From positions 155,244 to 219,243 of the forward strand of contig JBAZSE010000002.1 in assembly GCA_041662565.1 (NCBI GenBank): a DNA stretch of 64,000 nucleotides, written 5' to 3'. A program made the position numbers and the translations under genes. This stretch comes from Patescibacteria group bacterium. GTDB taxonomy: Bacteria > Patescibacteriota > Patescibacteriia > UBA1558 > UBA10009. The notes beneath the pieces were generated by a model that did no database searches, was not told the DNA's origin, and worked only from the letters and a program-made list of their open reading frames with translations. Every line of letters begins with the position of its first letter. The first letter of the stretch is position 1. Of this stretch, positions 15,015 through 62,012 are shown in pieces.

Positions 15015-15031
15015 ATCGAGATGAGCTCGAC
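15015..15031. repeat. Palindromic repeat family copy (variant ATCGAGATGAGCTCGAC) in the 16S leader
   Basis: It matches the 17-bp palindrome family seen at 23301, 30652, 30948, 42957 and 61842. Confidence 0.5.
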
Positions 15032-15336
15032 GAGATAATCCCCCGGCAAACAGCAATTGAAATCCGCTGTTTTTTGTTTCCACCTCCGCTCCCCGCACCC
15101 TGCCTAACGGCAGTGTACTAAGAGCTACGGCGGACAAGCTCTACGCAATAACATGCTACGGGCAGTAAAAAACAAAAAACAAACAGAACTTTGACAGCTG
15201 AATAAGTGATAGGAAACAATTAATTCCCAACAATTCTTTTAAGGTGGACTAATTACAGCCGTCCATCTTCCCCTTCCTACTCAAGAAAGCGCAAGTTTTC
15301 TTATCTGGAAGATCAAAAAAATAACTGCTGTATCTT

Positions 15337-16820
15337 AAATGAGAGTTTGATCCTGGCTCAGGATGAACGTTGGCGGCGTGTCTAAGGCATGCAAGTCGAG
15401 TGGGTTTAGACCCACGGCAAACGGGTGCGTAACACATTGGTAATTTACCCTTAACTCGGGCATAACTCGCCGAAAGGCGGGATAATTCCCGATAGCCATG
15501 GGGGGTCGCAAGACATTCCCATGTAAAGATTTATCGGTTAAGGAAAAGCCTATGGCCCATCAGCTAGTTGGTAGGGTAATGGCCTACCAAGGCAACGACG
15601 GGTAGCGGGTGTGAGAGCATGACCCGCCTCACTGGGACTGAGACACTGCCCAGACTCCTACGGGAGGCTGCAGTCAAGAATATTCCGCAATGGCCGCAAG
15701 GCTGACGGAGCGACGCCGCGTGCAGGATGACGCCCTTCGGGGTGTAAACTGCTTTTCTCTGGGACGAAATTTTGACGGTACCAGAGGAATAAGCCACTGC
15801 TAACCTCGTGCCAGCAGCAGCGGTAATACGAGGGTGGCAAACGTTATCCGGATTTATTGGGTGTAAAGCGTCCCCAGGCGGTCTGATTAGTTTTTGGTTA
15901 AATCTTTGGGCCTAACCCAAAAACCGCCAAAAATACTGTCAGACTAGAGACCGGGAGAGGTTAGTGGAATAGCCGGTGTAGTAGTAAAATGCGTTAATAT
16001 CGGCTAGAACACCAATAGCGAAGGCAACTAACTAGAACGGTTCTGACGCTCATAGGACGAAAGCGTGGGTAGCGAATGGGATTAGATACCCCAGTAGTCC
16101 ACGCTGTAAACGATGGGTACTGAGTATTGGAAGTATCGACCCTTCCAGTATTGTCAATCTAAGCTAACGCCTTAAGTACCCCACCTGGGGAGTACGGCCG
16201 CAAGGCTAAAACTCAAAGGAATTGACGGGAGTCCGCACAAGCGGTGGAGCATGTGGTTTAATTCGACAATAAGCGAGGAACCTTACCAGGGCTTGACATG
16301 TTAGGAATTCCGGCGAAAGTTGGAAGTGCCCGCAAGGGAGCCTAAACACAGGTGCTGCATGGTTGTCGTCAGCTCGTGTCGTGAGATGTTGGGTTAAGTC
16401 CTTTAACGAGCGCAACCCCTACTTTGTGTTAAATATTCACAAAGAACTGCCTCGGACAACGGGGAGGAAGGCGGGGATGACGTCAAATCAGCATGGCTCT
16501 TACGCCCTGGGCCACACACGTGCTACAATGGCGAGTACAGAGGGTCGCAAAACCGTAAGGTGAAGCTAATCCCATCAAAACTCGTCTCAGTTCGGATTGA
16601 GGTCTGAAATTCGACCTCATGAAGCTGGAATCGCTAGTAACCGTGAATCAGCCACGTCACGGTGAATACGTTCTCGGACTTTGTACACACCGCCCGTCAC
16701 GTCAAGAGAGTCGGTAGTACCCGAAAGCTGGAGTTTCTCCGGACTAAGGTAAGACTGATGATAGGGACGAAGTCGTAACAAGGCATCCGTAGCGGAAGCT
16801 GTGGATGGATCACCTCCTTT
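15337..16820 (+). rRNA. rrs: 16S ribosomal RNA (about 1.48 kb, no intron evident)
   Basis: The 5' end is GAGAGTTTGATCCTGGCTCAG and the 3' end GGATCACCTCCTTTCT. GTGCCAGCAGCAGCGGTAATAC and other universal blocks are present. Confidence 0.95.
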
Positions 16821-17160
16821 CTAGGGAGTATAATCTTCTGACTAAAACATTCGTGTTGAAGTCGAAAGTAGGTCGACCTTGATGTATGGGTTTTATAACC
16901 TATATTTACAAGAGTGGGGATTAATTGCTTTCCTATTACTTTTAAGCTGTTAAAGCGGCTGGGGTAGCCAACCCTAGCCGTTTTTGTTAGAATGATATTT
17001 ATTGAAGGAGATAACTAACTTCAATATAGGTTGTAAAGTCGCAAGGCCGAAGGCCGAGCGCTAAAATTCGCCTTTGGCGAATTTTAAAAGGAAGACATTG
17101 ATTGAAGCTGGAGCGACCGAGTTTACTCGGACGCGTAAGCTGAAAGCGATTGTCTGACGT

Positions 17161-17237
17161 GGGCGATTAGCTCAGTTGGTTAGAGCGCGTCACTGATAAT
17201 GACGAGGTCAATGGTTCGAATCCATTATCGCCCACCA
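17161..17237 (+). tRNA. tRNA-Ile (GAT)
   Basis: Cloverleaf folded by hand. The acceptor is GGGCGAT/ATCGCCC, the anticodon loop CTGATAA, and a CCA end is encoded. Confidence 0.9.
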
Positions 17238-17238
17238 C

Positions 17239-17313
17239 GCCGAGGTAGCTCAGTGGTAGAGCGCATGCCTGAAGAGCATGGCGTCGGCAGTCCGATTCTG
17301 CCCCTCGGCACCA
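17239..17313 (+). tRNA. tRNA-Phe (GAA)
   Basis: The acceptor is GCCGAGG/CCTCGGC, the anticodon stem CATGC/GCATG, the loop CTGAAGA, and CCA is encoded. It occupies the position usually held by tRNA-Ala. Confidence 0.8.
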
Positions 17314-59899: not shown

Positions 59900-60000
59900 T
59901 CCATGGTTTTTTCTCAATATTGCTTTACAAATCTCGGGTCTAATGTTAGCCCTTAAAAAGGTACTGTAGTGGCGGGTTTTAAACCCCCCACTACTTCAGC

Positions 60001-60029
60001 TTGACAAAATTTAAATAGTTTGATATAAT
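60001..60029 (+). promoter_or_regulatory. Consensus sigma70 promoter (TTGACA-17-TATAAT)
   Basis: Both hexamers are perfect. It lies downstream of a GTAGTGG...CCACTAC hairpin and is followed by an ATCAAG...CTTGAT palindrome. Confidence 0.55.
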
Positions 60030-60081
60030 TTTAAATCAAGTTATCTTCTCTTGATAAATCTTGATCTATAATAAGCAAAAA

Positions 60082-60528
60082 ATGCTTAAATACCTTGTTT
60101 TATTAGGCGGAACCGTTCAATTGATTGGTATTGCCTACTACATCAAAGAGACCGTCCGTGGCAACATTCAGCCGAATAAAGCCAGTTGGCTTTTATGGGC
60201 GATTGCTCCAATGATAACGACCTTAGCCGCGCTATCTAAAGGTGTAACCTGGGCAGTAATTCCCACTTTTTTAGCCGGTTTGGGGCCGTTATTGGTATTT
60301 ATCGCATCATTTATTAATCATAAGGCCTACTGGAAACTGGGAAAATTTGATTATTTATGTGCCTTATTTTCCATTTTGGCTTTAATGCTCTGGGGAATTA
60401 CCAGTGATCCTCATATTGCGATATTATTTGCCATCTTAAGTGATACTTTTGCCGGCATACCGATCGTAGTAAAATCTGCATTACCCGGAAACGGAAAAAA
60501 TTACCCCCTACTCTTCCGGCTTATTTAG
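60082..60528 (+). CDS. Hypothetical membrane protein
   Basis: Four TM helices. The ATG at 60082 is preferred over the TTG at 60061. Confidence 0.35.
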   Translation: MLKYLVLLGGTVQLIGIAYYIKETVRGNIQPNKASWLLWAIAPMITTLAALSKGVTWAVIPTFLAGLGPLLVFIASFINHKAYWKLGKFDYLCALFSILALMLWGITSDPHIAILFAILSDTFAGIPIVVKSALPGNGKNYPLLFRLI

Positions 60529-60674
60529 TTCTATTACCAGTTTTTTTGCCATTAGCACTTGGAATTTTTCCTCCCTTGCTTTCCCAATTTACCTGGTAAT
60601 AATGAACGTATCTATAATTACCGCTTTAACTAAAAATAAATTTAAGAAAAACCTAAACTCTAAATCAAATATTC

Positions 60675-62012
60675 ATGACTAAAGAACCTCAAAATATCAC
60701 TACTGACTTTTCCGGACTAGGCATTGCGCCCAGTATTTTGGAAATGTTGGTTAAATTAAAAATTTTAACTCCAACGCCGATTCAAAAACAGGCCATTCCC
60801 ATTGCCATTCAAGGTAAAGATGTCATGGGCGTGGCACAAACCGGCACTGGCAAAACTTTTGCTTTTGGCATTCCTATGATCCAACGCTTGCACCAGATCA
60901 ATGGCCGGGGCTTGGTAATTTTACCTACCCGTGAACTAGCCCTGCAAGTAGATGAGGCCTTGCGCAAAATCGGCCGTAGCGTAAATTTAAAAACCACCGT
61001 GTTAATCGGTGGCATGCCCATGCATCCGCAATTGCGTGCGCTGGCATCGGACCCGCATATTGTTATCGGCACACCCGGCAGAATCAACGATCACTTAGTT
61101 CAAAAAAGTTTACGGTTGGAAAATACCAAAATTGTTGTGTTGGATGAAGCCGATCGCATGCTGGATATGGGATTTGCTCCGCAAATTAAAGAAATCTTTA
61201 AAAACTTGCCAGCCGATAGGCAAACTATGCTTTTTTCGGCTACCATGCCACCGGTAATTATCCGTATGGCCACAGCTTTAATGAAATTGCCAATAAGGAT
61301 TGAGGTGGCGCCAACCGGCACCACGGCTGATAATGTTACCCAAGAAATTTTTATTCTGCCTAAAGACGCTAAAGTGCGGATGGTGGAAAAATTATTAGCC
61401 CAATACTTAGGGCCGGTATTAATTTTTAGCCGAACCAAGCATGGCGCCAAACGCTTAAGCCAAATGATCCATGATTTTGGCCATACGGCAGCCGAACTGC
61501 ACTCCAACCGCTCACTCGGACAAAGGCGCGAGGCCCTGGATGGCTTTAAATCCGGGCGTTTCCGCGTTTTAATCGCAACGGATATTGCCTCTCGTGGCAT
61601 TGATGTAATTGGCATTGAATTGGTGTTAAACTTTGATTTACCTGCTAATGCCGAGGATTATGTTCATCGGATCGGTCGAACTGCTCGAGCTGGTTCAGGC
61701 GGACATGCTATTTCTCTAGTAACTCCCGATCAAAGAGGCGAACTAAGGGATATAGAAAGATTAGTCAAAAAAAATCTGCCTATTTCCAAAGTACCCGATC
61801 TGCCCCCGGCCAGAAACCATACCTTTACTAATAGCACCGGATCGAGCTCAGCTCGATCAAGTCGGCCACCTAGATCATCGAGTTCAGCTAGATTTAGCAG
61901 GACAATTAGCTCGGGTAAGCTTTCTTCACACAGACCATTTAGTTCAAGCAGACCAAGCTTTATGCCACGCCCTTACAAAGGGCCGGGCACTTTTAGACGC
62001 CGCCGACCATAA
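60675..62012 (+). CDS. DEAD-box ATP-dependent RNA helicase with Ser/Arg-rich C-terminal tail
   Basis: The Q motif, AQTGTGKT, DEAD, SAT and HRIGRTAR are present. Part of the tail is encoded by the palindromic repeats. Confidence 0.85.
   Translation: MTKEPQNITTDFSGLGIAPSILEMLVKLKILTPTPIQKQAIPIAIQGKDVMGVAQTGTGKTFAFGIPMIQRLHQINGRGLVILPTRELALQVDEALRKIGRSVNLKTTVLIGGMPMHPQLRALASDPHIVIGTPGRINDHLVQKSLRLENTKIVVLDEADRMLDMGFAPQIKEIFKNLPADRQTMLFSATMPPVIIRMATALMKLPIRIEVAPTGTTADNVTQEIFILPKDAKVRMVEKLLAQYLGPVLIFSRTKHGAKRLSQMIHDFGHTAAELHSNRSLGQRREALDGFKSGRFRVLIATDIASRGIDVIGIELVLNFDLPANAEDYVHRIGRTARAGSGGHAISLVTPDQRGELRDIERLVKKNLPISKVPDLPPARNHTFTNSTGSSSARSSRPPRSSSSARFSRTISSGKLSSHRPFSSSRPSFMPRPYKGPGTFRRRRP
61842..61858. 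repeat. Palindromic repeat copy (ATCGAGCTCAGCTCGAT) in frame in the helicase tail
   Basis: A perfect 17-bp palindrome that encodes GSSSARS. Confidence 0.65.
61878..61894. repeat. Degenerate palindromic repeat copy (ATCGAGTTCAGCTAGAT) in the helicase tail
   Basis: 14 of 17 positions match the family consensus, 20 bp after the previous copy. Confidence 0.45.

Follow-up and report, generated by a model that had tools for sequence, protein, structure and literature searches.

Copies of the palindrome in the window

The stretch of DNA analysed here, referred to as the window, covers 64 kb of contig JBAZSE010000002.1 from a member of the Patescibacteria or Candidate Phyla Radiation (CPR). It carries seven copies of a 17-nt palindrome, ATCGAGCTNAGCTCGAT, each with at most two mismatches to this sequence. 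Four of the seven lie in frame inside open reading frames (ORFs), in the gene of a RibL-TruB fusion protein and in that of a DEAD-box helicase, and the others are found in the leader of the 16S rRNA gene, in the spacer between rpoB and rpoC and in the 5’ leader of ORF 23339-23968. A previous reading of the same DNA, the original prediction, had proposed that this repeat is either a miniature mobile or recombinogenic element or a recognition site. Absent from it were the occurrence of the element beyond this genome, the conservation of the apex GCTNAGC and not of the whole 17-mer, and its usual home in the 3’ flank of a tRNA gene upstream of a nuclease gene.

With the strict consensus ATCGAGCTSAGCTCGAT, three exact matches are found in the window (30652, 30948 and 61841), where 100 dinucleotide-preserving shuffles of the window give an expectation of 0.00; a loose search allowing up to three mismatches returns seven sites (15015, 23301, 30652, 30948, 42957, 61841 and 61877) for 0.01 expected. 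The sites had been predicted correctly, apart from two coordinates that were one off (61842 for 61841 and 61878 for 61877), as had a recurrence far beyond chance; the description of the genome as AT-rich has to be softened, the window having a G+C content of 40% and being only moderately AT-rich. The 8-nt half-site ATCGAGCT is confined within the window to these palindromes and never occurs alone. A palindrome survey of the window found a single arm type (ATCG/CGAT) among the copies in this genome, which fits amplification from one master sequence, and no recurring palindrome other than the 17-mer in the 64 kb. An additional 15 kb beyond the window (79 kb in all) holds no further copy. The copies are not an assembly artefact, since an independent NCBI assembly is 100% identical across 22 kb that include four of them; the three other records with proteins of the window are 100% identical to it and show no strain-level empty site.

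With regard to the copies outside genes, that at 15015 lies 208 nt past the gene of a DeoC-type aldolase and 320 nt ahead of the 16S rRNA, and that at 42957 lies 26 nt past the rpoB stop and 53 nt ahead of the rpoC start. The copy at 23301 has A as its centre base and is still a perfect palindrome; the halves of the older copy around it read gTCGAGTTgg and tTAGCTCGAa, and it is placed 38 nt before its ORF, with a TTGACA-17-TAAGAT promoter-like site upstream. The composite hairpin at this site folds at -19.6 kcal/mol (z -3.5), and the isolated 17-mer hairpin at -7.9 kcal/mol (z -3.6). The 16S leader, the rpoB-rpoC spacer and the compound palindrome had all been read as such before, and only the label of ORF 23339-23968 as a 3D-domain gene is unconfirmed, with no Pfam match.

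Inside genes, the RibL-TruB ORF (30201-31379, minus strand, 392 amino acids) has Pfam domains at residues 9-110 (CTP_transf_like) and 170-324 (TruB), the TruB part as a whole reaching from 170 to 365, and the peptide DRAQLD falls between the two domains, in the linker where it had been predicted. In the DEAD-box ORF (60675-62012, plus strand), Helicase_C ends at residue 340 and both tail copies lie beyond it. All four coding copies keep the frame and encode the expected peptides (IELSS, IDRAQLDE, and GSSSARS with its degenerate neighbour). They are limited to the linker between two domains, a loop of variable length and a disordered tail, in agreement with the proposal that the repeat is tolerated in proteins at linkers and tails.

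Comparison with relatives indicates that the palindrome is inserted DNA, because the truB copies are exact additions of six codons missing in orthologues and the copy between rpoB and rpoC is absent from syntenic relatives. In an alignment of the RibL-TruB protein with 24 orthologues (52-72% identity), the linker reads KAI-DRAQLD-EDDK in the window, whereas in all 24 orthologues KA(I/V/A/F) leads straight to (E/I/K/A/Q)D. In the loop, 19 residues separate DRTG from NQL, versus 13 in the closest orthologue (P0002), the six extra residues being IELSSI. Each of the two inserts adds 18 nt and consists on the coding strand of a 15-bp core, TCGAGCTCAGCTCGA, between direct trinucleotides, TGA...TGA at 30948 and TAA...TAA at 30652. 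The rpoB-rpoC spacer measures 94 nt in the window versus 23 and 66 nt in two syntenic relatives (L119 and L120, respectively), the extra DNA being the palindrome and a half-copy, and no copy of the 17-mer was found across the 19-21 kb examined in these relatives. The copy at 23301, lying in the middle of an older and mutated one, likewise speaks for insertion. An inserted element, and not conserved codons, is what the original prediction had supposed, and for both truB copies this holds; the orthologous helicase tails are all of low complexity and not alignable.

A general 3-bp target duplication of the type TNA was considered and rejected, since it is seen in only 3 of 66 CPR copies and position -2 is not enriched in T; copy 23301 nearly fits it, and the repeats around the truB copies are kept as an observation. 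Dozens of Komeilibacteria-like and other CPR proteins also have TruB fused to a cytidylyltransferase-like (RibL/FAD-synthetase-like) domain, with TruB alone in more distant relatives. The truB loop that holds copy 30652 contains a degenerate TCGAGCTTAGgGTCGA (GLELRVE) in the L119 orthologue (10001-11167) and another palindrome, CTCCGAAGCTCGGAG, in the L120 orthologue (10001-11161), and the inter-domain linker of a further orthologue (L122, 3812-4987) has a 30-nt hairpin-like insert (CCCGCT..AGCGGG, peptide SRLRSQASAG). These positions in truB may be either hot spots or old, decaying insertions. A perfect palindrome distinct from the 17-mer, GTAGCGACGCACAATTGTGCGTCGCTAC, opens with GTAG as classical repetitive extragenic palindromic (REP) sequences do and occurs in L120 (12443-12476), L121 (5322-5347) and L122 (583-610), in the last of these within the range of a called gene; the stretches examined in these three carry no 17-mer.

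The hairpin family and its tRNA-linked nuclease cassette

A scan of one genome per species (185,579 species, 596 Gb) returned at least 118 stretches matching the 17-mer, and a large share of the matches listed come from metagenome-assembled genomes (MAGs) of the CPR. By our own arithmetic, with equal base frequencies, about 139 chance matches are expected in 596 Gb, so that isolated matches in unrelated phyla mean little. Matches in Collinsella, Bacillus, Acetobacter, Terriglobus and high-GC genomes were not counted as family members, being at chance level and in some cases single orthologous sites or native peptides. A phage origin was also rejected, with just six matches in 2.9 million viral contigs. 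Among the matches listed, 14 loci have the first base of the palindrome on the final A (A76) of a tRNA CCA, and three more copies follow a sister hairpin that itself contains CCA. The sister palindromes have AGCT-N-AGCT in common and differ in their outer arms, and some CPR copies are flanked by A- and T-runs or form the tip of longer terminator-like stems. Small ORFs of the GIY-YIG nuclease family adjoin the hairpins in nine loci, and one is found in the window just after a tRNA-Ser gene (Table 1).

A metagenome scan with a four-sequence GIY-YIG protein alignment, which is biased to one GIY-YIG subfamily, gave 80 loci; these are not phylogenetically independent, and the counts and p-values derived from them are indicative. 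In 73 loci the sequence extends at least 200 nt upstream; a same-strand tRNA gene ends at most 300 nt upstream in 55 of these, AGCTNAGCT lies in those 300 nt in 55, and 42 combine the two. The cassette follows a set order, which runs from the tRNA with its end X-CCA through hairpin 1, a spacer of 2-3 nt, hairpin 2, a direct repeat X-CC(A) and some 30-40 nt to the ATG of the nuclease gene. Hairpin 1 is a perfect palindrome of 19-21 nt, whose left arm is the tRNA’s own 3’ end, X-CCA, and whose right arm is its complement. Hairpin 2 has exactly 17 nt and is most often ATCGAGCTNAGCTCGAT. The X element tracks the resident tRNA: with Lys, Glu or Val the end reads TCACCA, with Met AACCA, with Gln AGCCA, with Trp or Ser GCCA and with His ACCC. 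Only 4 of 2000 permutations paired tRNAs and tails with as good a match.

Upstream of the GIY-YIG genes, 193 GCTNAGC cores were found. Perfect arms of 6 bp or more flank 155 of them, and the arm length peaks sharply at 8 bp (87 cores). The 17-mer of the window is the commonest variant among them, the only invariant positions are G6, C7, T8, A10, G11 and C12, and the centre base on the sense strand is C in 58 cases versus G in 21. The palindromes are a CPR-wide family with perfect arms of exactly 8 bp, outer arms that are free but complementary, and an invariant apex GCTNAGC, and the 17-mer corresponds to hairpin 2 of a tRNA-linked GIY-YIG cassette found widely in the CPR. Across the 80 loci, the 300 nt ahead of the GIY-YIG start contain 147 palindromes and the DNA just past the stop about 16, with almost none in the other ~100 kb. 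Hairpins are present on 36 of the 48 tRNAs that precede a nuclease gene, versus 2 of 34 other tRNAs (Fisher p = 1.7e-10), which argues that they belong to the nuclease cassette and not to tRNA genes as such.

Proteins that are 94-96% identical to that of one locus (L042, after tRNA-Glu(ctc)) follow tRNA-Lys(ttt) or tRNA-Glu(ttc), and the nucleotide similarity among these cassettes runs from hairpin 1 through the stop codon and then ends. Near-identical proteins after different tRNAs, together with this sharp boundary of similarity, suggest that the cassette moves. In another pair of loci (L164 and L167), a 38-nt block of two hairpins is present in one and absent from the other, bounded by the 8-nt repeat GGCTCACC. 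A filled and empty pair of this kind was seen for the hairpin block only, the nuclease gene itself having none among the loci.

With regard to the nuclease, the cassette protein has about 90 amino acids and is a minimal GIY-YIG domain of the Slx1/UPF0213 type without auxiliary domains. Its best solved relatives, 1zg2 (E 1e-5) and 1ywl (E 0.01), were deposited as hypothetical proteins and have been placed in the Slx1 family, in its bacterial branch, which represents the GIY-YIG domain in its minimal form (Dunin-Horkawicz et al., PMC1564403). Eukaryotic Slx1 cuts branched DNA structures (PMC6902002), and no function was found described in the literature for these small bacterial GIY-YIG proteins. 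The literature likewise yielded no description of palindromic repeats in the CPR or of tRNA-linked GIY-YIG hairpins.

Table 1. Copies of the palindrome and parts of the nuclease cassette in the window
Feature	Position	Strand	Context
Degenerate copy ATCGAGATGAGCTCGAC, 2 mismatches	15015..15031		between two promoter-like sites, 16S rRNA leader
Compound palindrome	23291..23326		perfect copy ATCGAGCTAAGCTCGAT (23301-23317) nested in older degenerate copy
Perfect copy in truB	30652..30668	-	IELSSI, length-variable TruB_N loop
Perfect copy in RibL-TruB ORF	30948..30964	-	DRAQLD (residues 139-144), inter-domain linker
Copy ATCGAGCTGAGCTCGAC (42957-42973), 1 mismatch, and half-copy ATCGAGTT (42989-42996)	42957..42996		rpoB-rpoC spacer
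tRNA-linked nuclease cassette	57133..57466	+	tRNA-Ser(cga) ending 57132, two hairpins, GIY-YIG ORF
Degenerate hairpin 1 GCCACGCTGAAGCGTGGC	57135-57152	+	cassette of the window
Degenerate hairpin 2 GTCCGC..GCGGAC	57167-57193	+	cassette of the window
GIY-YIG ORF, 81 amino acids	57221-57466	+	PF01541, E 2e-11
Perfect copy, 19-nt palindrome counting flanking G and C	61841..61857	+	SSSAR, Arg/Ser-rich C-terminal tail of DEAD-box helicase
Degenerate copy ATCGAGTTCAGCTAGAT, 2 mismatches	61877..61893	+	same helicase tail, 36 nt from copy 61841

Some further observations concern the borders of the cassette. In L042, a tRNA-like fragment of about 70 nt (..gagctaacacg..ttcgaat..aaaacgttCACCA) lies inverted just past the nuclease stop, and the fragment replaces the tRNA upstream of hairpin 1 in L135, L151 and L169. 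A motif related to this fragment, GGATTCGAACTCAT, is found past the stop in L136 and L023 and may mark a feature at the right end of the cassette. In a Bacteroidetes MAG (L057, 2291-2624), a small GIY-YIG gene is placed directly past tRNA-Met with an unrelated hairpin, aaagccgtccgccaattggcggacggcttt, in between, and the arrangement of tRNA, hairpin and GIY-YIG gene may therefore extend beyond the CPR.

Other tRNA flanks were also noted. Upstream of the tRNA-Cys of the window (25076-25150), two tandem repeats of about 90 nt, 87.5% identical, occupy 25139-25330 on the minus strand. Each opens with the first 9 nt of tRNA-Cys (GGCCACGTA), followed by a small hairpin (tcccctaaagggga) and GGTGGCT, and they look like duplications of tRNA fragments or minihelices on the 5’ side of the gene. 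In L068 (770-2810), L037, L065 and L016 (3950-4115), several tRNAs (Leu, Ser, Ser, Arg, Cys) are followed by an insert of 75-150 nt, past which the final ~20 nt of the tRNA, i.e. its T-loop through CCA, occur a second time. The insert is conserved in L037, L065 and L068 (a hairpin and GAATCAAAAAGA...GAYGAGAAG...CCCGAGC) and differs in L016, and the palindrome comes after the functional 3’ end in some cases and after the displaced one in others; these inserts look like miniature integrative elements or scars of attachment (att) sites. A second conserved type of tRNA trailer, in which CCA is followed by TTCGAC(T/G)C, a hairpin and GCTCATGG, occurs in different genomes, namely at 17314-17355 of the window, at a tRNA-Leu in L013, at a tRNA-Ser in L087 and at tRNA-Ser(gct) in L201.

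As for the surroundings of the copies, the 16S rRNA gene precedes tRNA-Ile and tRNA-Phe in the stretch 15335-17313. Protein genes (TerC) come next and a 23S gene is missing, i.e. the rRNA operon is unlinked. An Rfam match to the DUF3800-II RNA (48172-48243, plus strand, 50.2 bits for a gathering threshold of 43.2) overlaps the 3’ end of a DUF3800 gene (48226-48783, minus strand). Twelve consecutive small genes with matches to T4SS_pilin (PF18895) lie 8 kb past the right end of the window (L129, 13988-19573).

Explanations for the dispersed copies

The copies in the window are best read as solo hairpins of the cassette that were secondarily inserted, by analogy with REP sequences and the REP-associated tyrosine transposases (RAYTs) or with the Rickettsia palindromic elements (RPEs). 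To the further proposal that such solo copies are moved in trans by an enzyme recognising the apex, with the cassette nuclease as the candidate, and that they last only where they are harmless, we would give about even chances. The short hairpin module would belong to a selfish cassette common in CPR/Patescibacteria, and a single sequence variant of it would have spread in this genome to at least seven sites outside any cassette. The mobilising enzyme would be a hairpin- or cruciform-specific nuclease that reads the apex GCTNAGC of the extruded structure, for which the cassette’s GIY-YIG protein is the obvious candidate, in parallel to the dependence of REP sequences on RAYT transposases. Copies would survive only at harmless sites, be it gene leaders and spacers or, in proteins, the linker between domains, a surface loop and a disordered tail, and those in coding sequence would be passengers without a function of their own. 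The original prediction had considered a Holliday-junction-like recognition site, and the idea of a structure-specific nuclease gains indirect support from position, i.e. from the tight linkage in relatives between the hairpin family and a minimal Slx1-family GIY-YIG gene.

A bolder claim, which we put forward tentatively and on balance doubt, is that the bare Slx1-type GIY-YIG protein of ~90 amino acids stands for a new class of selfish element. Such an element would recognise extruded GCTNAGC hairpins, settle at tRNA 3’ ends while rebuilding these as a triplication of direct, inverted and direct copies, and mobilise single 17-nt hairpins in trans as exact six-codon insertions. If this were true, single 17-nt hairpins would be the smallest mobile DNA units known.

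Several observations weigh against a hairpin mobilised by the cassette nuclease. Nuclease and hairpin are linked by position only, the loci lack phylogenetic independence, so that the p-values are optimistic, and the sole GIY-YIG gene of the window belongs to another subfamily (~40% identical) with degenerate hairpins that are not of the canonical GCTNAGC type. Moreover, no consistent target-site duplication accompanies the copies, the TNA repeats of the truB copies being as rare in the CPR as described above. Some matches elsewhere are due to chance, as in L112, where the palindrome encodes a native RAQLDR motif of MnmG. Finally, the abutment on CCA, the co-variation with the tRNA end and the strand bias of the centre base could likewise reflect a function within the cassette at the level of RNA or of a single DNA strand.

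These last three observations, together with the stability of the isolated hairpin, are the main argument for the alternative that survives best, although we consider it unlikely: the hairpin would act in RNA as a 3’ trailer that terminates, insulates or directs the processing of tRNA and tRNA-nuclease transcripts. Hairpin 2 and its X-CCA tail might also mimic an acceptor microhelix for a tRNA-end enzyme, and the window copies would be functional RNA hairpins (in the 16S leader, the rpoB-rpoC spacer and the 5’ leader) or inert spill-over. A- and T-runs like those of a bidirectional terminator surround the hairpin in L005, L013, L029, L055, L073, L085 and L116, and it forms the tip of a longer terminator stem in L039, L087 and L108. 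However, a stem-loop with a U-tract, as in an intrinsic terminator, is found only for some copies elsewhere (L013, L055, L073, L085 and L116); in the window, a sense-strand T-run is missing after all seven copies, and a terminator was flagged on the minus-strand reading of 15015 alone. The scarcity of the hairpin on tRNAs without a nuclease gene downstream (the 2 of 34 given above) argues that it is not a general tRNA-processing signal, and no Rfam family matches it at gathering or E-value thresholds in the window, L003, L068 or four cassette loci. Furthermore, with four of the seven window copies inside ORFs, a role in RNA leaves the entry of identical 17-mers into coding sequence unexplained and needs a separate step for it.

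Template switching would dispense with a dedicated enzyme, the hairpins arising by fold-back synthesis at the self-complementary AGCT and the triplication from two strand switches. The layout of the cassette, in which the direct tRNA end, AGCTNAGCT, an inverted copy, AGCTNAGCT and a direct copy follow one another, is indeed a two-switch pattern, and complementary arms formed in this way would need no selection. Fold-back synthesis, however, builds from local flanks, whereas a single fixed 17-mer recurs in the seven window copies despite their unrelated surroundings. Nothing in the truB inserts derives from their flanks, the window presenting the opposite of arms that match the upstream flank, and the arm length is fixed at 8 bp; we regard this explanation as improbable.

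Still less probable is a site read in double-stranded DNA by a dimeric protein, such as an operator, a parS-like or Noc-binding-site (NBS)-like site, or the target of a restriction-modification system of the BlpI type (GC^TNAGC). The perfect dyad with a single-base centre would suit such a protein, and the apex GCTNAGC is a known type II restriction site of the BlpI type. The site of Hpy188I, TCNGA, is likewise a dyad with a free centre base. That Hpy188I is a GIY-YIG restriction enzyme (PMC3045582) also counts in favour of this explanation. Against it, the outer arms vary freely among relatives while complementarity is kept, which points to a read-out of structure rather than of sequence, and copies have been inserted into coding DNA. 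GCTNAGC sites are neither depleted nor in excess in the window (9 observed versus 11 ± 3.5 expected), and no methylase, restriction or ParB-type gene was found among the ~48 window ORFs scanned, so that the restriction-modification part of the original prediction is not supported while its insertion part stands. A search for restriction avoidance gave TCGA as the most depleted 4-mer palindrome (0.65), but AGCT (1.02) is undepleted, as is GCTNAGC, and this lead was dropped.

A DNA uptake signal for the competence of these nucleotide-auxotrophic bacteria, comparable to the pairs of DNA uptake sequences (DUS) or uptake signal sequences (USS) that double as terminators, would account for the conservation across CPR lineages and the presence in both terminator-like contexts and coding DNA and would suit the pilin-like proteins encoded in the genome, but it is highly improbable, given that the half-site is never alone, that the density is ~1 per 10 kb (7 copies in 79 kb) against ~1 per kb for DUS/USS, that L119 and L120 have no copy in the stretches examined and that the family is concentrated beside one type of gene.

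Relation to known systems and significance

The cassette and its solo copies can be compared with several known systems. With the REP/REPIN-RAYT system, whose transposases are of the IS200/IS605-like Y1 type, they share short GC-rich dispersed hairpins, a single gene of the nuclease or transposase type flanked by them, arrays and nested copies, and a frequent location at gene 3’ ends or terminator-like positions. In contrast to that system, the partner gene is a minimal GIY-YIG protein (Slx1/UPF0213) and not an HUH Y1 transposase, the home site is a tRNA 3’ end with a repeat of the tRNA end, and solo copies are few, with in-frame copies in genes. The hairpins are also perfect palindromes of 17 nt with the apex GCTNAGC and no 5’ GTAG, whereas a REP sequence is an imperfect palindrome of ~20-40 nt with a 5’ GTAG and strictly extragenic, which the four copies inside ORFs are not. 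No match of the Y1_Tnp (RAYT) type was found among the window ORFs scanned. Hairpins on both sides of the nuclease gene, as for REPs around a RAYT gene, were considered and hold for L003; downstream hairpins are a minority.

RPEs and the miniature transposable elements with inverted repeats known as MITEs measure roughly 50-150 bp or more. A MITE would show terminal inverted repeats around an interior of 50-500 bp and a fixed target duplication, whereas the palindrome has 15-17 bp with nothing between its arms. RPEs and in-frame palindromic MITEs, e.g. those of Coxiella, are selfish palindromes that keep the frame and survive in tolerant, surface-exposed regions (PMC5896051, PMC10969869), and the truB copies resemble them in being missing in orthologues, keeping the frame and occupying tolerant regions. 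The insert of 18 nt is, however, below the size of an RPE (about 100-150 bp) and consists of one stem-loop, without terminal inverted repeats apart from the hairpin.

The mobile G+C-rich palindromic clusters of yeast and fungal mitochondria are likewise GC-rich, short and palindromic within a genome richer in AT. They occupy spacers, rRNA leaders and occasional reading frames, with short A/T-containing direct repeats at some of their insertion sites. They differ in hosts and sequences, and a nuclease partner is not established there, whereas in the CPR it is physically linked.

Seg and Tev homing enzymes carry DNA-binding domains. The CPR protein of ~90 amino acids has none, and paired hairpins or tRNA-end repeats are not described for Seg genes. 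GIY-YIG homing genes in tRNA clusters, such as T4 SegB (PMC2330249), are nevertheless similar in the placement of a nuclease gene beside tRNAs and of near-identical genes at different tRNAs, the latter of which fits a selfish mobile cassette. Homing enzymes come from the GIY-YIG lineage that includes UvrC, and the bacterial Slx1 members are bare catalytic domains (PMC1564403).

Finally, the cyanobacterial highly iterated palindrome HIP1 and DUS/USS are short over-represented motifs in coding and non-coding DNA, and inverted DUS/USS pairs can act as terminators. Such motifs accrue through point substitutions, reach about one per kb and need not form a palindromic hairpin, unlike the sparser, discrete insertions described here, in which the half-site is always part of a palindrome. 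Small palindromic selfish repeats are a known kind of element, and it is possibly the partnership with a nuclease that is new.

The stereotyped triplication of tRNA 3’ ends is an unusual sequence architecture. If the link between hairpin and nuclease holds, it would give the first function-related context for the very common small GIY-YIG genes of the CPR and for the bacterial Slx1/UPF0213 family, and it would define a simple, testable substrate for this latter family, a 17-nt hairpin with the apex GCTNAGC. As a marker, the hairpin would also help to annotate the 3’ flanks of tRNAs and to recognise recent insertions in CPR MAGs. Streamlined genomes of ~0.8 Mb would then tolerate a proliferating repeat that remodels their proteins six codons per step.

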